Below are positions 10,568 to 25,219 of a stretch of DNA of 64,000 nucleotides, in pieces. Every line of letters starts with the position of its first letter. Position 1 is the first letter of the stretch. Position numbers and translations under genes: made by a program. The notes below the pieces were generated by a model. That model had not been told where the DNA came from, did no database searches, and worked only from the letters and a program-made list of their open reading frames with translations. This DNA comes from Armatimonadia bacterium. GTDB taxonomy: Bacteria > Armatimonadota > Zipacnadia > Zipacnadales > UBA11051. The DNA is taken from the NCBI GenBank assembly GCA_039683575.1, contig JBDKRC010000137.1:11107-75106 (forward strand), given 5' to 3'.

Positions 10568-12982
10568 TCAGGTAGGGCGGCGCTTGCCGGCCGTGCGCTT
10601 CAGTCGCAACGAATTGCTCACCACCGAAACGCTGCTCGCAGCCATGGCCCCCGCGGCGATCATGGGATTGAGCACACCGGCAATCGCCAGCGGTATCGCC
10701 GCCACGTTGTAGAAGAACGCGAAGAACAGGTTCTGCTTGATGTGCCGCAAGGTCGCGCGACTGATCTGGATCGCCCGCACGACCGCCAGCGGATCGCCGC
10801 TCACCAGCGTGATGTCCCCCGCCTCAATCGCCACATCCGTACCCGTTCCGAGCGCGATCCCCACATCCGACTGCGCCAGCGCCGGGGCGTCGTTGATGCC
10901 ATCCCCCACCATCGCCACCCGTAGCCCCTGCGCCTGCAGCGCCTTCACCCGCTCCGCCTTCTGGTCGGGCAGCACCTGCGCCAGCACCTCGTCGATCCCC
11001 ACCTGCGCCGCGATAGCCCGCGCCGTCTGCTCGTTATCGCCGGTCAGCAGGTACAGCCGCAGCCCCATGCGACGCAATCGCCCCACGGCCTCGGCCGCTG
11101 TCGGCTTGATCGTGTCCGCCAGGGCAAGCATCCCCGCCGGCCTGCCCTCCACGGCCACCAGCAGCACAGTTTTCCCCTGCTGCTGAAGCGCCGCGTAGTC
11201 CAGCCCCTGCACCGCAACGCCCGTCTCCTCCAGGTAGCCGGCCGTGCCAACCAGCACCTGTTGCCCCTCGACCTGCGCCTGCACGCCCTTCCCCGTCACC
11301 GCCGCGAACCCCACCGCCTCCGGCAACTCAAGCCCCCTCTCCCCCGCCCGCTTGACCACTGCCTGCCCCAGCGGGTGCTCCGACCCCTGCTCCACCGCCG
11401 CCACCAGTCGCAGCAGCGCGCTCTCATCACCGTCCACGGCCACAACATCCGTCACCTCGGGCTCACCCTTGGTCAACGTCCCTGTCTTGTCGAAGATGAT
11501 CGCCTGCAGCGCCCCCACGGCCTCCAACGCCGCCGCTTCACGGATCAGCACGCCCTGCTCAGCGCCCAGCCCGGTGCCGACCATCACCGCGGTCGGCGTG
11601 GCCAGACCCAGCGCACACGGGCACGCGATGACCAGCACCGAAACGGCATTCACGAGCGCACGACTGTACTCCACGTGTCCCACGAACAACCAGCCGAGGA
11701 AGGTCAGCAGCGCAATCCCGATGATGACCGGCACAAAGATGCCCGCGATCACATCCGCCAGCCGCTGGATCGGTGGCTTGGTCGCCTGCGCCTGCTGCAC
11801 CAGCCGCACGATCTCCTGCAGCACCGTATCGCGTCCCACCCGCGTCGCCCGGAACTGAAAGCTCCCGCTGCGGTTGATCGTCCCACCGATGACCTCACTC
11901 TCCGGCCGCTTCTCCACCGGCAGGCTCTCACCGGTCAGCATCGACTCATCAACGACAGACTCGCCCTGCGTCACGGTACCGTCCACCGGCAGCTTCTCCC
12001 CCGGCCGGATGATGACGATGTCATCCACCACGATCTGCTCGATCGGCAGGGACACTTCCTGCCCGTCGCGCAGCACCGCCGCCTCGCGTGGAGCCAGTTC
12101 CAGCAGCCGCCGTACCGCCTCCGACGTTCGGCCCCGCGCCCGCGCCTCCAAATACCGCCCCAGCGTGATCAGCGTGAGAATCATTGCCGCCGAATCATAG
12201 TAGAGCCCGTATTCATGGGGACCGACCATGTGCGTGTGCAGCCCAGGCAACGGCTTGAGGGTATGATACAGGCTGAGCAGGTATGCCGCCGTCGAACCCA
12301 TCGCGATCAGCACGTCCATGTTCGCCGAACCATGCCGCAGCGCGTTCCACGAATTACGGTAGTACTGCCAGCCGAGCAGCAACTGCACCGGCGTCGCGAG
12401 CACCGGCAGCAGAATCCACCAGTACCACATCGGCCACATGCTGAAGATCATCAGCGGGACAGACACGATGGCGCCAAACAAAAAGAGCCGCCACTGGTGG
12501 CGACTCTCTGCTTCACGCTCCCGTTGGCGCTCATCGGGCTCGACCTCCCCCGCGACTTCCGCCTCATATCCCGCCGACTGCACGGCCACAAGCAGTTCAG
12601 GCACACTCACTCGGGCCGGATCGAAGCTCACCTCAGCGCGCTCGCTCGCGAGGTTCACCGTGACATCATTTACCCCGTCCACTTTCTGCAGCGCCTGCTC
12701 GACGCGGTTCACGCAGGCGGCGCAGTGCAGGCCCTTGACCGCCAGCGAGATCCTGCGCCCCAGGGCTACAGCCACGGACGCCTCATAGCCCGAAGCCTCG
12801 ACTGCGCTGATCAGCCTCTCCGTCGGCAGTTCGTCCACCAGCCGCACCGTGGCGGTCTCGTCCCCGAGGTTCACAACCGCCTCAGTAACCCCGTCCACGC
12901 CCCGCAGTGCTTTCTCCACCCGCGCCACGCACGCGGCACAATGCATGCCCTTGATGTCCAGGCGGGTCGTTTTCTCTGCCAT
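10568..12982 (-). CDS. copA: copper-translocating P1B-type ATPase with two N-terminal HMA domains
   Basis: Two [16 protein letters not shown] metal-binding motifs, the CPC motif ([11 protein letters not shown]), DKTGTLT phosphorylation site, GDGINDAP. Confidence 0.9.
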
Positions 12983-13003
12983 TCAGGGCCTCACAAGGTG
13001 GCA

Positions 13004-13234
13004 CTATTTCGCATGCTGGGCGATCCGCGCCTCGTAGCCGGCCTTCTCTACCGCTCTGGTCAGGTCTTCCTCGATCACCCACTTCTCCGCCGTCACCATT
13101 GCCCACTGCGAATCCAGGTCCACTGTCGCCTTCCTGACCCCGGAGACGCTCTTCAAGGCCTGTTCCACGGTGTTGGCGCAGTGCGTGCACGACATGCCGT
13201 GGATCTCTATCTCAATTGTCACCAGATTCTCCAT
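13004..13234 (-). CDS. copZ: copper chaperone CopZ (HMA domain)
   Basis: MENLVTIEIEIHGMSCTHCANTVEQALKSV. Start ATG at 13234 with a GGAGGA RBS; the longer ORF start at 13300 lacks an RBS. Confidence 0.8.
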   Translation of the reverse strand: MENLVTIEIEIHGMSCTHCANTVEQALKSVSGVRKATVDLDSQWAMVTAEKWVIEEDLTRAVEKAGYEARIAQHAK

Positions 13235-13553
13235 CTGTATCCTCCACATGCTCTGGTTCCGCCGCTGGTTTGCCTTTGACGGTCTGGCGGCATTCCTCAT
13301 AGACGTCTTTCGGCACCAGTTTGAGCGATAGATAGACCAGCAGCGGGAGGATTATGACATCATCGAGCAGGCCAAGCACCGGAATCCAGTCTGGTATCAG
13401 GTCAAAGGGCATCATGGCATAGCCAATCGCCAGTAGCAGCAGCCACCTCGCGATCCGCGGCGTGCGCGGATGGCAGGCCACGAGCCGGTACAGTTGCACC
13501 TGCCGCTTGAACCCGCGTCCCAACTCTCGCAGTCGCTGCGTCACGCGTGCCAT
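13212..13553 (-). CDS. DUF1232 (YkvA-like) membrane protein
   Basis: Motif MMPFDLIPDWIPVLGLLDDVIILPLLVYL matches DUF1232 (DLIPDFIPV.G.LDD). Start taken at MARVTQ (aa 21 of the ORF). Overlaps the copZ start by about 23 nt. Confidence 0.65.
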   Translation of the reverse strand: MARVTQRLRELGRGFKRQVQLYRLVACHPRTPRIARWLLLLAIGYAMMPFDLIPDWIPVLGLLDDVIILPLLVYLSLKLVPKDVYEECRQTVKGKPAAEPEHVEDTDGESGDN

Positions 13554-13634
13554 GGTTTCTGCCTTCGCCGTTGTCCGTCTGAACCCTCCGCGCCCGTAGC
13601 GCGTATGAACCACTGGACAACCTGGCGAGGAGGA

Positions 13635-14105
13635 ATGAGGATGTTACCCAAGACCACAACTCGGGTGCAGGAGAACACCGCGCCCGAGATCAACGAGCGC
13701 ATCCAGCAGGAGATCCGAGATAACGTGCGCATGTACTCGTGCGCTTGCCCGGAGTTGATCGAGAGGCGGCTGCAGGAACTGGACGCCGAGTGGGATATCG
13801 AGCGAACACTGGAAGCCGGCGCCGGAGCCGTTGGCTTCACCAGCCTTTTGCTCGGCCTGACCGGGAAGCGTGCCTTCCTGGCTCTGCCGGTGCTCATCAC
13901 CGGGTTCCTACTGGTGCATGCCGTGCAGGGCTGGTGCCCGCCGCTGCTATTCCTCCGCCATCTGGGTGTTCGCACCCCCGGCGAGATTGAGCAGGAGCGT
14001 CAGGCGCTCAAGGCCTTGCGCGGGGACTACAAGGGCTTGAAGCCTGTCGGCGAGTGCCACTGCATGGAGGACGTCTCCGCCTATGTTGAGGCCGCCCAAC
14101 GCTAG
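13635..14105 (+). CDS. DUF2892 (YgaP-like) small membrane protein
   Basis: Start ATG 13635 preceded by GGAGGA. The longer ORF start at 13470 would overlap the divergent DUF1232 gene. Two TM helices (LLLGLTGKRAFLALPVLITGFLLVHAVQGWC). Confidence 0.6.
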   Translation: MRMLPKTTTRVQENTAPEINERIQQEIRDNVRMYSCACPELIERRLQELDAEWDIERTLEAGAGAVGFTSLLLGLTGKRAFLALPVLITGFLLVHAVQGWCPPLLFLRHLGVRTPGEIEQERQALKALRGDYKGLKPVGECHCMEDVSAYVEAAQR

Positions 14106-14118
14106 TGTCAGAACCATA

Positions 14119-14146
14119 CATGGGAGGGGCAGCCGCCCCTCCCATG
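14119..14146. terminator. bidirectional hairpin terminator between convergent DUF2892 and clpC
   Basis: Perfect inverted repeat catgggaggggc-agcc-gcccctcccatg. Confidence 0.6.
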
Positions 14147-14170
14147 GTGTTGTCCGTTGATTGTCCGTCG

Positions 14171-16675
<2,505 letters not shown>

Positions 16676-16685
16676 ATGTCATCAC

Positions 16686-17390
16686 TCAGTTGATTATTCT
16701 CGGTCTCCTCCCGCCAAAGCCACCGCGCGACTGGAGCAGGACCATACGTGCCACCATCACGGCCATGGCAAAGACCAGGAGGTTGATAACTACTTGGTGC
16801 TTTTCCTGAAGCCACGGCAACGGCCACAGGATCAGGCTCAGCGCGATCCAGACCAGGGCTGCTACTGCCAGTACCTGTCGTCGGGGGAAACACACCCTCG
16901 TCCGATGCAACCACTGCGCAAGCTCAACGCCACGCCATAGCAGGCCGATGCTTATACCGATACCTATAGCTCCAGTCAGGCGTGCTGAGTGCTCGCTGGC
17001 GCCCATCAGGTACGTAAACGCGCCCCCGATGAGCATCACGCTCGCCTTCAGAAGCCAATACCACTGAGCCACGGCCCGCACCGGCTGGGGGACCTCGATG
17101 TGCTCCTGTGCGCGCAAGATCTCCGCTGCCTCGTCCGCGCCGTCCGGGGAGGTCCAGACCACTATCGGCAGCACCCCGGGCACGCCCACCTTCAACACCG
17201 CCGTCTGCGGCTCAAGAGGGACCCGCATTGCCGGCAATCCCGCACCTTTCAAAGTACACACCGCCAGATCGGCCTCAAGCTCCTGAAACAGCCCGTGGTA
17301 GCTGGCTACTGGAACCCACTGGCTGGGTAGACCGGGCGTCATGGCTTGCTCGGCGCTCATCGGAGCACCCCCTGCGCGACAGATGCACAC
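16686..17390 (-). CDS. DUF2007-like domain fused to a C-terminal 4-5 TM membrane domain
   Basis: N-terminal part (WVPVASYHGLFQELEADLAVCTLKGAGLPAMRV...WTSPDGADEAAEILR) resembles the two upstream DUF2007 ORFs. C-terminal half is hydrophobic. Stop is 10 nt before clpC. Confidence 0.55.
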   Translation of the reverse strand: MCICRAGGAPMSAEQAMTPGLPSQWVPVASYHGLFQELEADLAVCTLKGAGLPAMRVPLEPQTAVLKVGVPGVLPIVVWTSPDGADEAAEILRAQEHIEVPQPVRAVAQWYWLLKASVMLIGGAFTYLMGASEHSARLTGAIGIGISIGLLWRGVELAQWLHRTRVCFPRRQVLAVAALVWIALSLILWPLPWLQEKHQVVINLLVFAMAVMVARMVLLQSRGGFGGRRPRIIN

Positions 17391-17618
17391 CTACTCCTTT
17401 AGCAACTCCGCCGCCTCTTCCGCCCGGTCCGGCGGCACCAGCACCCTGATCGTCTCAGGGAATTGGGCGAAAGTGGACTGCATCACCGGGAACCGCACCA
17501 CTGGAATCCCTGCCCCCTCAAGGAAGCTGACGCATGCGTTCGCGGCGCCGTCCGTCCCGAAGTCCGCCACCACCACCCAATCGTCATTCCTGGTGCGCGG
17601 TGATGTCGATTTCGGCAT
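17391..17618 (-). CDS. DUF2007 (putative signal-transducing protein) paralog
   Basis: DDWVVVADFGTDGAANACVSFLEGAGIPVVRFP...IRVLVPPDRAEEAAELLKE. The 5' end overlaps the upstream paralog, so the start is uncertain. Confidence 0.5.
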   Translation of the reverse strand: MPKSTSPRTRNDDWVVVADFGTDGAANACVSFLEGAGIPVVRFPVMQSTFAQFPETIRVLVPPDRAEEAAELLKE

Positions 17619-17853
17619 CGCTCAGCAGCTCCTTGGCGTCGGCTTCCCGGTCCGGCGGCACGAGCACCTTCACCGGCATCATCGGCCCGCCGAACCCGTC
17701 GAACACCACGGGCGCCCCAGACGGTGGGATGCGAACCACCGGAATGGCACTGCCCTCAAGCAGCGATACAACCAGGTCGGCCTCAATATCAGCCTCATGC
17801 CCCGCGCGGTGCCACACCACGACCCAATCCTCAGTCCGAGCTTCATCCGCCAT
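17584..17853 (-). CDS. DUF2007 (putative signal-transducing protein) paralog
   Basis: EDWVVVWHRAGHEADIEADLVVSLLEGSAIPVVRIP...VKVLVPPDREADAKELLSDAE. Starts 18 nt after hspR. Confidence 0.5.
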   Translation of the reverse strand: MADEARTEDWVVVWHRAGHEADIEADLVVSLLEGSAIPVVRIPPSGAPVVFDGFGGPMMPVKVLVPPDREADAKELLSDAEIDITAHQE

Positions 17854-17871
17854 GTCGGGCCTCCTCTGCGC

Positions 17872-18237
17872 TTACTCGTCCTCCGCCTGGATTCTGATCT
17901 CCACCCGTTGCCGCTCAGGTGCTGCCTTGAGCCGCAGGGGACCATGGTCCCTCTCATATTTCAGACGCTCGATCTGCCCCTGCAGGTCTGCGATCTGGTC
18001 CAGCAGCTTCAGCACCACATCCACGCCTGCTAGATTGACGCCCAGCTCCTGCGTCAGCCGCTGAATCTGTCGCAGCCGCTCGATGTCGCGCTCCGAGTAC
18101 AGCCGCAAGCCCTGAGGCGTCCTCCGTGGCTGCACGAGCCCCGCGCGCTCATACATCCGCAAGGTCTGCGGGTGCGCCGAAATCAGCCGCGCCGCAATGC
18201 TTATGTAGTAGACCGGTTCGTCTTGAGTATGCTTCAT
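17872..18237 (-). CDS. hspR: MerR-family heat-shock repressor HspR
   Basis: N-terminal MerR HTH (VYYISIAARLISAHPQTLRMYERAGLVQPRRTPQGLRLYSERDIERLRQI) plus C-terminal coiled coil, located immediately downstream of dnaJ as in HspR regulons. Confidence 0.8.
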   Translation of the reverse strand: MKHTQDEPVYYISIAARLISAHPQTLRMYERAGLVQPRRTPQGLRLYSERDIERLRQIQRLTQELGVNLAGVDVVLKLLDQIADLQGQIERLKYERDHGPLRLKAAPERQRVEIRIQAEDE

Positions 18238-18285
18238 CTATGTCATCCTCCGCCAAGTGACGGAACAATCAACTCTCGAACTCAT

Positions 18286-18371
18286 CTGTACGAGCGATCA
18301 CTGATCGCGACGCCTGCCGCTATCCGTCGCTGGCCCCACCCACTGATCGCGACCGGTGATCGCTCGTACAG
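18286..18371. promoter_or_regulatory. composite palindromic element between dnaJ and hspR: 15-bp perfect outer inverted repeat plus four TGATCGC/GCGATCA half-sites
   Basis: ctgtacgagcgatca (18286-18300) pairs with tgatcgctcgtacag (18357-18371). The inner direct repeat cactgatcgcgac occurs twice. gcgatcaCtgatcgc is a 7-1-7 palindrome. Confidence 0.5.
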
Positions 18372-18386
18372 GGAGGGGCAAGTGGG

Positions 18387-19502
18387 CTACTCCAATCCCT
18401 CCCGCACGTCCTCCTCCCAGGTCTGCCCAAACTCTTCCAGCAGTTCCTTCTGCCGCTTGTTCAGCTTCTTGGGCGCCACCAGGTACACCTCGACGTACTG
18501 GTCTCCCCTGTCCTGGCCGCCCAGTTTCGGCGCGCCCTGCCCGCGCAGGCGGAACCGTTGCCCGCTCTGCGTCCCGGCCGGGATGCTCAGCGACACCTTG
18601 CCATGCACCGTCGGCACGCTAATCTTCGCCCCCAGCGCCGCTTCCACGAAGCTGACCGGAATCTTCACATGGATGTCGTCGCCCTCGCGCTCAAACAACT
18701 TGTGTGGGTGAACGCGAATTGACATGATCAGATCACCATCCGGTCCTCCGCGCGCGCCTTTGCCGCCCTCTCCTGCCAGCCTGATCTTGCTGCCCGTGGT
18801 CACCCCCGGCGGGATCTTCACATTGATCCGCCGGTTGCGCACCACTTCCCCACCTCCGGCGCACTTCGCGCAGCGGCTCTTGATCTGCTGACCTGTCCCC
18901 TGGCACGACGGGCAAGCCTGCCCCATGCCAAAGAACCCGCCCTCGGTCACGCCCTGGCCCCGGCACGCGGTGCAAGTCGCCACCTGCCCGCCGACGCCGC
19001 CACAATCCGGACAGCGGTCGGCAATACTCAGCGACAGGCCCTTCTGCGCCCCGGTGATCGCTTCCATGAAATCTACAGCGATCTCATGAGTGATATCCTG
19101 ACCACGCTCCGGCCCCGTGCGCGTCCCGGCCCGTGCGCGTCCCACGCCACCGCCTTGCCCGGTGCGCATCTGCCCGAACAGGTCCCCAAACAGGTCTGCA
19201 AAGCTCCCCGCGCCATGCTGCTGGTAGACGAAGTTGCCAAAGTCCCCGCCCTGCCACTGCCCGGTCTGCTGGGCCTGCTGCCACTCCTGACCATACTGGT
19301 CATACTTCGCGCGCTTCTCAGAGTCGCTCAGCACCTCATAGGCCTGGCTGATACGCTTGAACCGCTCCTCGGCCTCAGCATTACCAGGATTCACGTCCGG
19401 GTGATGCTTCCGCGCCAGCTTGCGGTAAGCACTCTTAATCTCTTTATCCGAGGCCCCCCGGCTAACGCCGAGCACCTCGTAAAAATCTGGTTCTTTGGCC
19501 AT
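18387..19502 (-). CDS. dnaJ: molecular chaperone DnaJ (J domain, G/F region, four CxxCxGxG zinc repeats, C-terminal domain)
   Basis: [31 protein letters not shown]; CPDCGG...CTACRGQG...CPSCQGTG...CAKCAGGG. Confidence 0.92.
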
Positions 19503-19510
19503 GTCTGCCT

Positions 19511-20020
19511 TCAGTAAAGTGTCATCCCGCCGGCTACTCCGAGGTGCTTGCGCAGTGATTTGTAGTGCTGCGAATCCGCTGTCCTAAGAACCTCTTTCAG
19601 GGCGTCTTCACTACCACTCAGGAATGTGTTGACTTCCTGCTCCACCTTGTCGCGGTCAAACGTGGGACGGGCTAGAGCATCATCGATTGCAGCACACATC
19701 TGGGCAATTGTAGCGTCGGTAATGCCTGCTTGCTTCGCCGTGCTGCGGTAGGCCGGCCACTCAAAATCGGGTATTTGTGACTTGTGGCGAAGGTAATCCC
19801 GCAGTGTCGCGTGTGTCTGAAGAGTTGCCCGCAGTGTATTCGCCTGGTGCACCGACTGTGCAGTCTCTTCAAGGTCAATCTGCTGCTTAACGAGGCGATT
19901 CTGCTCCCGCATCTCTTCCACTTGCTCCGCAGAGTGCCGAGCCTGTTTTGATGTGGCCAGCCATGAAAGAAGTGCGAAGCCAGCGCTGAATATGCTGATA
20001 ACCAAGGCAGCGGTAGCCAT
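19511..20020 (-). CDS. hypothetical membrane-anchored protein, noticeably lower GC than its neighbours, embedded in the dnaK operon
   Basis: N-terminal [24 protein letters not shown] followed by a coiled-coil-like region. Tightly spaced: 9 nt from dnaJ and 20 nt from hsp20. The DNA is visibly A/T-richer than flanking genes. Confidence 0.5.
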
Positions 20021-20040
20021 GTTCCCCTCCTAAGTTGTCG

Positions 20041-20478
20041 CTACTCCACCACAACCTCAACCTTCCGCGGTGCCGCCTCTGCCAACCTCGGTATCCGCAC
20101 CTCAAGCTCCCCCTGACGCAGCTTCGCCGACACTTGCGACAGATCCGCCTCGTCCGGCAGTGGGATCGTGCGGCTGAACGTCCCGTAGGTCCGTTCCCGC
20201 CGCAATACCACCGGGTTCTCGTCCCCCTCTTCCATCTGCTTCGTGCCGCTGATGACCAGCGCCCCGCGCTCCACCTGCACCTCCACGTCGTCCTTCGCCA
20301 CCCCCGGCAGGTCCACCAGGACCACCAGCCCCCGCTCGTCGCTCATCAAATCAACCACCGGCGCCAGCATCCCCGCCGGCCTGCACACCCGCTCCTGCTG
20401 CTGCGCCGCGCGGAAGGCCTGCTCCACCCTCGCCCGAAGCTCCCTGATCTCACGCCTCGTGTCCCAGTAGTAGGTCAT
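20041..20478 (-). CDS. Hsp20/alpha-crystallin family small heat-shock protein
   Basis: Alpha-crystallin domain: PVVDLMSDERGLVVLVDLPGVAKDDVEVQVERGALVISGTK...GTFSRTIPLPDEADLSQVSAKLRQGELEVRIP. Confidence 0.85.
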   Translation of the reverse strand: MTYYWDTRREIRELRARVEQAFRAAQQQERVCRPAGMLAPVVDLMSDERGLVVLVDLPGVAKDDVEVQVERGALVISGTKQMEEGDENPVVLRRERTYGTFSRTIPLPDEADLSQVSAKLRQGELEVRIPRLAEAAPRKVEVVVE

Positions 20479-20870
20479 CGCTGCTCCTCCCCCGCCTGCG
20501 CCTTCTTCACCCGCACAGTCAGCACCCCGTCACGCAAACTCGCCGACAGGACCCAGTTCCCCTCTGGCAGCGCCAGCGACCGCTGGAAGCGCCCTGCGAG
20601 CCTCTCGCGCCGGTGATACCGCCCCTCGCGCACCTTCCGTTCGCCGCTGATGCTGAGCGTGCTGCCCTCAAGCTCCACATTCACATCATCCCGCGCCACG
20701 CCCGGCAGTTCCACCGTCACCACCATGCCCTCCCCCAGCGCGACGATGTCCAGCGCCGGCATGAAGCCCATCCCTGCCTGCCCAGCCCCCGCCGCCTCGC
20801 TCTCCAGCGCGCGATAGAGCCGCCGCCGCAGGTCCAGCAGCGCGTCAAGTTGTTCGGTCATCCCCAGCAT
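20475..20870 (-). CDS. Hsp20/alpha-crystallin family small heat-shock protein (paralog; 4-nt overlap with the downstream hsp20)
   Basis: PALDIVALGEGMVVTVELPGVARDDVNVELEGSTLSISGERK...GRFQRSLALPEGNWVLSASLRDGVLTVRV. Confidence 0.85.
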   Translation of the reverse strand: MLGMTEQLDALLDLRRRLYRALESEAAGAGQAGMGFMPALDIVALGEGMVVTVELPGVARDDVNVELEGSTLSISGERKVREGRYHRRERLAGRFQRSLALPEGNWVLSASLRDGVLTVRVKKAQAGEEQR

Positions 20871-20912
20871 GGCCTGCTCCTTCAGCTAACTCTTCATCCG
20901 ACCCGCGGGTGG

Positions 20913-20947
20913 GCCGGATACCGGCGATGAGACTGCCGGTATTCGGC
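20913..20947 (-). terminator. imperfect hairpin between dnaK and hsp20 (possible partial terminator/attenuator)
   Basis: gccggataccggcg-atgagact-gccggtattcggc in the 93-nt dnaK-hsp20 spacer, followed on the coding strand by a GAAGGAG RBS for hsp20. Confidence 0.4.
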
Positions 20948-20963
20948 CCCTCCGTTCGTTCGC

Positions 20964-22925
<1,962 letters not shown>

Positions 22926-22941
22926 TCATTTACTGAAACCG

Positions 22942-22971
22942 AGTATAAGACTTGAGTGTATTACTGTCAAG
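22942..22971 (-). promoter_or_regulatory. sigma70-type promoter (TTGACA-N17-TATACT) for dnaK with an overlapping HAIR-like HspR operator (CTTGACA-N7-ACTCAAG)
   Basis: The minus strand reads cTTGACAgtaatacACTCAAGtcTTATACT about 75-100 nt upstream of the dnaK start. HAIR consensus is CTTGAGT-N7-ACTCAAG. Confidence 0.6.
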
Positions 22972-23125
22972 TGTCTGAACGAAATAATGTAGCGCTCTCC
23001 AGTCCCTTCCCTGCTTCTTTGTGACGAATACTTCCCCCCCGGGTTCTAACACTCGGGCAAGGATGCCCGCGCTCCACACGGCAATAAGGCAGGTCCCACC
23101 CCCTCACACGCCGAACCCACACCCC

Positions 23126-25219
23126 ATGAACAACCTCCTGTGTCTTCTCGCCGCCGCGGTAGTCATCAGCCTGGCCGCGCCTGCCCGCGCCGCCACCATT
23201 CGCGTGGACGTCAACTCCATGCCGCGCATCGTCTTCACCGGCGACTCCCAGACCTGCGGCCGCGTCGGCGCCCTCGACTATCCCCAGATGCTCTCGTGGG
23301 AAGTCCCCCTGAGGGTCTTCAACACTGGCGTCGGCGGCACCAGCATCACCCACCTGATCAGGGAGAAGAGCGGCGGCACAGCCACCCTCAAAGCCGGCGA
23401 GAAGGTTGCCCATGGCGAGAAGGTCGGCTGGGGCAGCGGCCCCTATCCCGGTCAGAAGATCCGCTTTGGGACGCAAAACTACGTCGTAGACCGCATCGAG
23501 ATGGTCGACTACAAGGCCGCGCTCTACAACGTCTACCTCACCGAGCCGGCCCGCGAGGACTTCACCGGCACCGACTTCTCCGTCGAAGAGGGCTGGCGCG
23601 TCCGCATTGCCGAGATCAAGCCCCAGTACGCCGTCTTCATGTACTCGGTGAACGATCCGAGCTGGACTTCCGAGCAGTTCAAGGGCTACCTCGCCGAGAT
23701 CACCCGCCGCTGCCGCGAAAGCAACATCACCCCCATCTTCCTGAGCGGCTTCCCGCTCATGGAAGCCCCCAGCGGGGGCTCCCACCCCGGCACGAACGAC
23801 AATGTGCTCAAGCGCCCCCAGGACATGCTCGAATTCTGCCAGGCCGAGAAGCTCGCCTTCGGCGACGTCTTCCGCACCCTCATGCTCCTCGACGAGCAGC
23901 GCACCTCGGTCTGGGTAGACACCGTCCACCCGACCACCGACGGCTCGCTGCCTGCCATCCAGGCGATGCGATACCTTCTCAAGCAACTGGGCGCGGTCAG
24001 CGGCCCGTTCGTCCGAGGCTACCGCGTGCCCGGTTCCGAACTGCCCTGCACCTTCGACAATCTCTCCCCCATCACGCCCAGCCAGCCCGACTACAACGCC
24101 AGGAACGAGCCGAGGGACAACGAGTTCGATCTCGAGTCCATCCGCGTCCGCGACGAGTACGGGTTGCTGGCAACGGCTGACGGGCAATGCCTGAAGAGCG
24201 AGCAGCCGCTGGTGCTCGAATTCGGACAGCTTCCGGCGGGAATGCTCGACCAGGCCGCGGTCGAACTGGTGTCGCCGGAGCAAGTACTCGTCTCCTATTT
24301 CGATCCTGAGAAGAACCAGTGGGTGAAGCTCTGTGAGGGTAGTGGGAAGCTTCGCGGCGAGGTGCCTGCGAAGCTGGCGCAGACAGGGCTTTTGCGCGTA
24401 GCAGTGCAGGGCAAGCCCGTCCTGCTGGACTATGCAGGGCTTGAGTTGAAGGGTGATTTCCCCCCTCCGCCGCCCGCAGCCGCCACGCCGCAACCCCTCA
24501 TCTGGCCTGAGCCGGGCCGGTACGCATGGCCCGCGAGCGGCAACCTGATCGCCAACGGCGACCTGACCAGGGCCGCCAGTGGCACTCCCGACTGCTGGGT
24601 GAGGCGCGGAAACGCCGCCTACCAGCCAGCGGGCACGATTGCGAAGGGGACAGGGGATTTCAGAGAGGAGCGTCTCGACCAGTTCCAGGCCGCAGGGCAG
24701 GCCTTCAACAGTTCCGTTCGCCCCTTGGACATGGTAGTCATTGAGAAGGGCCCGGAGGGCGTCACCGGCAACTTTCTCATTCAGAGTATCATAGATGACG
24801 AAACGCTGGACTTCCGCCGGTTTGCCAAGGCGCCAACCAATGGACTGGCCTTCACGGTCCAGCGCAAGTCAGGCCTTCCGGCGGTGCCAGGGGGTTGTCT
24901 GATTGAGACTGCATCGGGTGGCGAGTGGGAAACGCGGCTGGAACTTGCTCCCGGAACGTATGATCTGACCTTCTACCACCGTGTGTTTGACCCGACCTCC
25001 ATGACCGCCAGAAGCCGCCCAGACCGTGTGGCTAAGGTAGAGGTCCTCGACGCCAAGGGCAAAGTTCTGCACACTGCCGTCCCCCGGGAGTGCAGCTACT
25101 CCTGGCAGCGAGACAGCCTGAGCTTCGATCTGCCGAAGGCTCAGGCTGTCGTAATTCAGGCCACAACGGCTAGTCTCGTGAAGGTTCAGTACACGGGCTT
25201 CGCCCTGCTCAAGCGGTAG
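23126..25219 (+). CDS. secreted SGNH/GDSL-family hydrolase with a large C-terminal beta-rich extension
   Basis: Start at MNNLLCLLAAAVVISLAAPARA (signal peptide). The longer ORF from 23021 lacks a signal. GDS block IVFTGDSQTCG and C-terminal catalytic block VDTVHPTTDG. Confidence 0.7.
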   Translation: MNNLLCLLAAAVVISLAAPARAATIRVDVNSMPRIVFTGDSQTCGRVGALDYPQMLSWEVPLRVFNTGVGGTSITHLIREKSGGTATLKAGEKVAHGEKVGWGSGPYPGQKIRFGTQNYVVDRIEMVDYKAALYNVYLTEPAREDFTGTDFSVEEGWRVRIAEIKPQYAVFMYSVNDPSWTSEQFKGYLAEITRRCRESNITPIFLSGFPLMEAPSGGSHPGTNDNVLKRPQDMLEFCQAEKLAFGDVFRTLMLLDEQRTSVWVDTVHPTTDGSLPAIQAMRYLLKQLGAVSGPFVRGYRVPGSELPCTFDNLSPITPSQPDYNARNEPRDNEFDLESIRVRDEYGLLATADGQCLKSEQPLVLEFGQLPAGMLDQAAVELVSPEQVLVSYFDPEKNQWVKLCEGSGKLRGEVPAKLAQTGLLRVAVQGKPVLLDYAGLELKGDFPPPPPAAATPQPLIWPEPGRYAWPASGNLIANGDLTRAASGTPDCWVRRGNAAYQPAGTIAKGTGDFREERLDQFQAAGQAFNSSVRPLDMVVIEKGPEGVTGNFLIQSIIDDETLDFRRFAKAPTNGLAFTVQRKSGLPAVPGGCLIETASGGEWETRLELAPGTYDLTFYHRVFDPTSMTARSRPDRVAKVEVLDAKGKVLHTAVPRECSYSWQRDSLSFDLPKAQAVVIQATTASLVKVQYTGFALLKR

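Follow-up and report, generated by a model that had tools for sequence, protein, structure and literature searches.

Tandem DUF2007-like genes, one with a predicted membrane anchor, between hspR and clpC in an Armatimonadia heat-shock cluster

The window analysed here is a stretch of 64,000 nucleotides (nt) from an Armatimonadia bacterium (contig JBDKRC010000137.1), in which the genes of interest all lie on the minus strand. Between hspR, the gene for a heat-shock repressor, and clpC, the gene for an AAA+ unfoldase, the window carries three small genes in tandem, which we call D1, D2 and D3. A first-pass annotation, made from the sequence alone, had described them as three tandem paralogs of the DUF2007 family in this position, with two stand-alone copies of 75-90 amino acids (aa) and a third copy fused to a polytopic membrane segment and ending 10 nt before clpC. 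It had also suggested that the set has a stress-sensing or adaptor role. The positions, sizes and fusion were all borne out. The relevant features, in window coordinates, are as follows.

hspR, 17872..18237, minus strand: MerR-family heat-shock repressor gene, 121 aa (NCBIfam NF047375 and Pfam MerR_1)
D1, 17584..17853, minus strand: stand-alone DUF2007-like protein, 89 aa
D2, 17391..17618, minus strand: stand-alone DUF2007-like protein with a basic N-terminal tail, 75 aa
D3, 16686..17360, minus strand: N-terminal DUF2007-like domain (residues ~14-85) and a predicted four-helix membrane anchor, 224 aa
Predicted transmembrane helices of D3 (four), 16725..17087, minus strand: from hydropathy and charge, an AlphaFold2 (AF2) model and a 21-sequence alignment
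clpC, 14171..16675, minus strand: double-ring AAA+ unfoldase, 834 aa
Putative sigma-70-like promoter with HAIR-like repeat, 22942..22971, minus strand

The genes are closely packed: hspR and D1 are separated by 18 nt, and the D3 stop lies exactly 10 nt from the clpC start (16686 vs 16675). D1, D2 and D3 are protein-coding paralogs under purifying selection. Pairwise BLASTP comparisons gave E-values of 4e-15 for D1 and D2, 4e-8 for D1 and D3, and 8e-7 for D2 and D3. Codon periodicity, which had been proposed as a check on the reading frames, is present in all three and resembles that of the adjoining chaperone genes (GC content of ~0.7/0.45/0.75 at the first, second and third codon positions). 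In comparison with the close relative L003, the ratio of nonsynonymous to synonymous substitution (dN/dS) was 0.14 for D1, 0.12 for D2 and 0.30 for D3, which puts D1 and D2 inside the range of the flanking genes (0.03-0.25) and D3 slightly above it. The sequence motif ascribed to the three copies is kept only loosely in D3 (WVPV..., LKGAGLPAMR, VVWTSPDG..EAAEIL).

The D3 reading frame reaches a GTG at 17390, giving 234 aa. However, the ATG at 17360 (224 aa) is most likely the start, because it has a GGGGGT ribosome-binding site and because the homologs P0002 and P0003 have the same start (MSAEQA). D1 and D2 share 35 nt (17584-17618), where the end of the first gene and the start of the second are read in different frames. 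This overlap, which is kept in relatives at 29-35 nt (4333-4367 in L003, 1442-1470 in L001), codes for the acidic C-terminal tail of D1 and the basic N-terminal tail of D2.

D2 and D3 evolve more quickly than D1, which is the constant and best conserved part of the array. The identity of D1 is 64-78% where HspR and DnaJ show 70-83%, a similarly slow rate. The D1 protein is strongly acidic, with an isoelectric point (pI) of 4.3 and a net charge of -12, and D1-type proteins have an acidic C-terminal tail. The N-terminal tail of D2-type proteins is basic and conserved, reading MP.L.SPRR..S[DE]EW in many of them, and orthologs of this type come after D1 in L001, L003, L012/L016, L014, L015, L017 and L018. 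The AF2 model of D1 has the order beta-alpha-beta-beta-alpha, with a predicted local distance difference test (pLDDT) score of 73 and strand 2 joined to strand 3 by a long loop. The loop at residues 43-60 (18 residues, PPSGAPVVFDGFGGPMMP) matches the fold core in conservation (top-residue frequency 0.88) and has the lowest confidence in the model. A loop that is conserved and yet modelled with low confidence is a pattern typical of a flexible binding loop.

In the AF2 model of D3 (pLDDT 81), a domain of the same beta-alpha-beta-beta-alpha order is followed by helices at residues 92-119, 123-154, 161-184 and 189-212. Hydropathy and the model agree on transmembrane helices at about 97-119, 128-150, 162-182 and 189-210; of the four or five that had been counted originally, four are thus supported and a fifth is not. 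The loop and the helices are conserved in the alignment of 21 sequences. The loops on the outside measure ~6-8 residues; on the opposite side are a loop rich in Arg (HRTRVCFPRR) and the tail at the C-terminus (RRPR). Because of the positive-inside rule, the DUF2007-like domain is placed in the cytoplasm, and the predicted topology is N-in/C-in. Given the tiny outside loops and the cytoplasmic position of the domain, the membrane part seems to serve for anchoring and not for sensing, and the earlier suggestion of stress sensing through the membrane domain is disfavoured. The transmembrane region matched no consistent Pfam family; DUF1275 was considered and rejected, with an E-value of 0.01 and a match in 1 of the 21 members.

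A structural resemblance of D3 to a known membrane-associated module was also weighed. The modelled N-terminal domain of D3 superposes well on residues 19-92 of PrgK, which carries the PrgK/EscJ inner-ring motif of type III secretion, with a TM-score of 0.81 on the target and a root-mean-square deviation of 2.6 Å. This ring-building motif is an oligomerisation module joined to a membrane anchor. However, sequence identity between the two is ~9%, the Foldseek E-value is ~0.2, and the PrgK domain is periplasmic whereas that of D3 is predicted to be cytoplasmic. The resemblance is probably generic to small alpha/beta domains.

The assignment of the array to DUF2007 needs some care. Against PF09413, D1 scored 19.1 bits (E 0.0015) and D2 19.2 bits, neither of which reaches the gathering threshold of 25.7, and D3 had no match; scores below threshold had been named in the first-pass annotation as a result that would refute it. 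Nevertheless, we keep the membership because of matches to PF09413 across the family, profile-profile alignments and a fold match to 2HFV. PF09413 was matched by 34 of the 37 family members at E<=0.01, with a best E-value of 1.4e-6. An exhaustive profile search led to 127 cluster representatives that shade into ordinary DUF2007 proteins, and six of the ten far-end representatives tested pass the Pfam threshold (28.5-42.2 bits). In hhalign comparisons with six threshold-passing proteins, which were drawn from the matches of the D family's own profile and so favour similarity, the D1 family reached a probability of 98% (E 1.5e-13) and the D3 family one of 96.9% (E 1.6e-10).

By fold, the best match of the D1 model in the PDB was 2hfv (Foldseek probability 0.99, TM-score 0.51, E 0.018), a modest match in which the target is a nuclear magnetic resonance structure and the query a model with a pLDDT of 73. 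The D3 model matched the same entry with a probability of 0.98. We take 2HFV to be the founding DUF2007 structure. A profile search of PDB sequences returned no meaningful relative, and 2HFV was detectable by fold only.

The D family and DUF2007 are alike in domain size (~65-75 residues), in the beta-alpha-beta-beta-alpha core, in an EA at the start of helix 1 and a GIP before strand 2, and in the pattern V.V.VP...EA..LL at strand 3 and helix 2. The D family is set apart by hallmarks of its own: strand 1 opens with a Trp, strand 2 is followed by R-x-P, and D1 carries a long loop of invariant sequence (PPSxAPVVFDGFGGP). We conclude that the D proteins belong to the DUF2007 superfamily as a divergent subfamily. 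In the literature searched we found no functional study of DUF2007 (PF09413), and few passing mentions. Three large proteins, P0084 (1957 aa), P0118 (583 aa) and P0156 (1013 aa), each matched the D-domain profile in 6-8 separate stretches; they may have several domains, or the matches may be artefacts of repeats or low complexity.

To place the array in context, we surveyed 19 mapped loci, then four more, together with the gene lists of two contigs. Every locus of the subfamily that has flanks shows the D genes between an upstream hspR and a downstream clpC, all on one strand, and this conservation of the slot spans roughly a dozen lineages. The gene order of the upstream part of the cluster, from dnaK to dnaJ, also recurs in relatives. 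The number of D genes in the slot differs between lineages, as follows.

One D gene: L007/L008 and L009-L011
One D gene and a tandem two-domain fusion: L024
Two D genes: L012/L016, L015 and L017, with at least two in L014
Two D genes and a tandem two-domain fusion: L020, where the contig ends
Three D genes: the window and L003-L006, with at least three in L018
Four D genes, two soluble and two membrane: L001
Four D genes, all soluble: L023
Five unassigned ORFs (open reading frames), of which one is called DUF2007 and another is D-type: a JGI contig

L020, L023 and L024 belong to a second clade. Compared with the window, its ClpC is ~69-70% identical over the full length (L023) and its HspR 53-59%. 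The slot is evolutionarily old, since it is kept in this second clade with its divergent ClpC and HspR. Tandem two-domain D fusions (P0057, P0067 and P0086) occupy the slot, which suggests that D domains work together. In contrast to the fixed context of the subfamily, the gene neighbourhood of a DUF2007-like representative at a greater distance (E 3e-5) is unrelated. The co-occurrence with clp and hspR genes that had been put forward for DUF2007 therefore holds for every flanked locus of the Armatimonadota subfamily, but not for DUF2007 at large.

D1-type proteins are rare: 5.8 billion sequences contained 34 clusters of them at 90% identity. A scan of genome collections with D1 orthologs found two GTDB species, both uncultured Armatimonadia; a metagenome scan added six loci; and an initial search for D3 homologs found 4 proteins. 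The window is ~98% identical to a protein of an Armatimonadia metagenome-assembled genome. The D subfamily was found almost exclusively in Armatimonadota. In the searchable literature we came across no account of such an operon. Considering the slot and the family together, we think it highly probable that these are real paralogous DUF2007-like genes in a conserved position between hspR and clpC.

Several relatives carry additional genes within the slot. One or two pairs of HEPN and nucleotidyltransferase (MNT, toxin-antitoxin-like) genes lie between hspR and D1 in L001 (436-1150), in L003 (3360-4077) and in the JGI contig; the window has no such pair. In L015, an unrelated ORF of ~300 aa (858-1871) lies between the D2-type gene and clpC. 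The insertions on the hspR side had led us to consider a tighter tie of the array to clpC than to hspR, an idea that was dropped on account of the L015 insertion. Despite the HEPN/MNT genes nearby in relatives, D1-D3 show no sign of a defence or phage function, because searches of PADLOC and PHROG gave no matches for them.

The identities of both flanking genes are well supported. The HspR protein scored 115.6 bits against NCBIfam NF047375, above the cutoff of 105, and has a pI of 9.1. The ATPase contains the Pfam domains Clp_N, AAA, AAA_lid_9, AAA_2 and ClpB_D2-small. Its best NCBIfam match is ClpB, yet this falls in two pieces, below cutoff. It aligns end to end with Bacillus subtilis ClpC (865 bits, residues 2-821 vs 2-802) and has an M-domain of ClpC length, half that of ClpB, with one single-residue gap over residues 396-498 of B. 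subtilis ClpC. The segment TIGFRLED aligns with the ClpC loop YVGFNVQD; this TIGF/YVGF loop is presumably the ClpP-docking loop. Because of the full-length alignment, the length of the M-domain and the IGF/VGF loop, the ATPase is ClpC-type by sequence, and clpC is the better name; ClpC is a class I Hsp100 protein whose partner is ClpP.

Upstream of hspR, the cluster continues with chaperone genes, as follows.

dnaK, 22859-20964, minus strand, 631 aa
hsp20, first copy, 20870-20475, minus strand, 131 aa
hsp20, second copy, 20478-20041, minus strand, 145 aa
orf169, 20020-19511, minus strand, 169 aa, no assigned family
dnaJ, 19502-18387, minus strand, 371 aa

Some 85-110 nt upstream of dnaK there is a sigma-70-like promoter close to the consensus (TTGACA-17-TATACT), and the inverted repeat CTTGAGTGTATTACTGTCAAG at 22951-22971 overlaps it. 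The repeat is two mismatches away from CTTGAGT-N7-ACTCAAG, the consensus of the HspR operator, HAIR (PMC6102357). In L007 and L009, a HAIR-like repeat is found ~110-115 nt upstream of dnaK and is the sole match in those loci of 12-16 kb. No further promoter-like sites were found in the cluster. Since a HAIR-like repeat lies at the dnaK promoter and other promoter-like sites were not found, the genes from dnaK to clpC probably form a single HspR-controlled operon.

Other features of the region are noted here. The orf169 product has an N-terminal hydrophobic helix and no match in Pfam, NCBIfam, PADLOC or PHROG. The GC content at its third codon positions is 0.59 vs 0.74-0.88 in adjacent genes, and the gene is missing at the corresponding spot in L003, where the adjoining proteins are 83-99% identical; it looks like a recent insertion between the second hsp20 and dnaJ. 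A grpE gene is absent between dnaK and dnaJ in the operon of the window and in the relatives examined, and a crude motif search of the window found none elsewhere. On the 3' side of clpC lie a gene for a copper/heavy-metal P-type ATPase with two HMA domains (10568-12982, minus strand) and a convergent ORF of 211 aa (13470-14105, plus strand) with no Pfam match at E<=1e-5, both apparently unconnected to the heat-shock cluster. No Rfam elements were found within 13000-24000.

The array recalls the ctsR-mcsA-mcsB-clpC operon of Bacillus and other Firmicutes, where a repressor gene, small accessory genes and clpC likewise stand together under their own repressor. In B. subtilis, mcsA and mcsB lie between ctsR and clpC; similarly, clpS lies directly upstream of clpA. 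B. subtilis ClpC requires the adaptors MecA, YpbH and McsB, which also activate the hexamer, and the Bacillus accessory proteins combine ClpC adaptor function with control of repressor stability (PMC5506225). According to the title of a reference in that paper, the clpC operon of B. subtilis begins with ctsR. However, ClpC is the sole homologous component of the two operons: the repressor here is HspR, of the MerR family, rather than CtsR, and the D proteins have neither similarity to McsA or McsB nor a kinase domain. We therefore treat the analogy as a lead. Among other known adaptors are the small proteins ClpS and MecA/YpbH, which attach to a Clp ATPase at its N-domain or M-domain; ClpS and MecA are absent among the fold matches of D1 and D3. 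We know of no described ClpS or MecA that occurs in tandem copies of varying number or is anchored in the membrane.

From gene context and this analogy, the reading we favour, with a probability of about 0.4, is that the D proteins may be accessory subunits of ClpC, acting as adaptors, activators or localisation factors. It is favoured because the D genes are co-located, and probably co-transcribed, with clpC; because unfoldases of the ClpC type depend on adaptors that also activate the hexamer; because adaptor genes elsewhere adjoin the gene of their ATPase; and because a D3 domain predicted to be cytoplasmic would suit a tether for a cytosolic machine. The adaptor role raised in the first-pass annotation is plausible on the same gene context, and the predicted location of the D3 domain is compatible with it.

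In such a scheme, one promoter with an HspR operator would drive dnaK, hsp20 (two copies, where present), dnaJ, hspR, the D array and clpC, and when HspR repression is lifted the D genes would be induced together with the chaperones and ClpC. The D domains would then associate as homo- or hetero-oligomers, the flexible invariant loop between strands 2 and 3 would contact the partner, and the four-helix anchor of D3 would keep part of the complex at the membrane, on the cytoplasmic side. We infer the co-transcription, the association of D proteins with one another, the partnership with ClpC and the effect on ClpC activity.

Several points weigh against this reading. The case for ClpC as the partner is one of gene context and analogy, and since hspR and clpC both flank the array in every locus, context cannot separate the two candidate partners. 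Nor is either junction inviolable, as foreign genes are inserted both on the hspR side (the HEPN/MNT pairs) and on the clpC side (the L015 ORF). D1-D3 gave no matches to ClpS, MecA/YpbH or McsA/McsB in Pfam or NCBIfam, even at E<=1, and a crude motif scan of the window found no clpP. The DUF2007 affiliation itself carries the sub-threshold Pfam scores, the moderate confidence of the D1 model and the origin of the six reference proteins described above.

The serious rival, which we nevertheless consider unlikely, is that the D proteins modulate HspR, as a co-repressor, an anti-repressor or a feedback sensor that tunes operator binding. The array always begins just after hspR, at a distance of 18 nt in the window, and D1 and HspR evolve at about the same rate. 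Moreover, with a net charge of -12 on D1 and a pI of 9.1 for HspR, the basic repressor might bind the acidic D1 in competition with DNA. Chaperone partners are known to modulate HspR, namely DnaK in Streptomyces and CbpA in Helicobacter pylori. In H. pylori, cbpA and hspR belong to one operon (PMC6102357). However, several lineages have retained the array with HEPN/MNT pairs inserted between hspR and D1, and the D fold shows no sign of DNA mimicry. A membrane-anchored copy would also be ill-suited to controlling a DNA-bound repressor, except by sequestration.

It is rather improbable, in our estimation, that the D proteins are stand-alone heat-shock proteins, such as small holdases or membrane protectors, which share the operon for co-expression only. 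The presence of two hsp20 genes and other chaperone genes in the operon would suit such proteins, as would a copy number that is free to vary from 1 to 4 or more, in the manner of a protective protein for which dosage matters. Yet the position between hspR and clpC is strict in two divergent clades while the presence of hsp20 varies, and the high conservation of D1 and of its loop argues for a specific binding partner.

A further proposal would refine either the ClpC or the HspR model rather than replace it: the D proteins would be small-molecule sensors of the PII/ACT type, binding a nucleotide or metabolite at subunit interfaces and signalling through the conserved loop to ClpC or HspR. PII/GlnB and ACT domains are, like the D domains, small alpha/beta sandwiches. 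PII proteins are trimers with a four-stranded double beta-alpha-beta fold and a T-loop, and they bind nucleotides and 2-oxoglutarate; their T-loop sits where the D proteins have an exposed loop, after strand 2 and before strand 3. The loop of the D proteins is long and conserved, ACT (aspartate kinase) and PII-like proteins (GlnZ, SbtB, PstA) are among the weak fold matches of D1, and Pfam describes DUF2007 as a 'putative prokaryotic signal transducing protein'. We regard this as quite improbable, however. The matches are weak (E ~0.4-3, probabilities mostly 0.1-0.4; for the PII proteins E 0.9-3.5, probability ~0.1), the D models are three-stranded and lack the fourth strand of the PII fold, and no ligand-binding motif was identified. 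We found no functional study of PII-like ClpC adaptors in the literature searched.

Finally, the idea that the D reading frames are chance frames, or that their DUF2007 resemblance is spurious, can point to the D1 and D2 scores under the Pfam gathering threshold, to the lack of a Pfam match for D3 and to the many long spurious ORFs that GC-rich DNA gives, some of which overlap the array on the plus strand, but it is effectively refuted by purifying selection and codon periodicity, by dozens of homologs with conserved synteny, and by the profile-profile matches and the fold match to 2hfv.

Taken at its plainest, the D array adds a new, lineage-specific variant to a domain family that is known but uncharacterised, and its genomic linkage is unusually clean. 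If the D proteins are simply co-expressed stress proteins, the result amounts to a modest note in comparative genomics. A more ambitious version of the ClpC reading, doubtful as it stands, is that they are ClpC adaptors or regulators of a new class that uses the DUF2007 fold. Soluble D1 and D2 and membrane-anchored D3 would form mixed oligomers that switch ClpC(P) on in heat shock, with a part stationed at the membrane for the quality control of membrane proteins. By analogy with the action of McsB-ClpC on CtsR in Bacillus, the D system might also feed back on the stability of HspR. If true, such an adaptor class would be the first function for DUF2007. The fixed place of one subfamily between hspR and clpC, across a little-studied phylum, attaches a specific hypothesis to a widespread small domain with a solved structure and so far no function: that D1 binds and regulates either ClpC or HspR, which is testable with a few recombinant proteins. 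To our knowledge, unfoldases of the ClpC type are generally adaptor-dependent and their adaptors are known in a few model groups only. An adaptor family that includes a membrane-anchored member would, if confirmed, widen the picture of how regulated proteolysis is organised.

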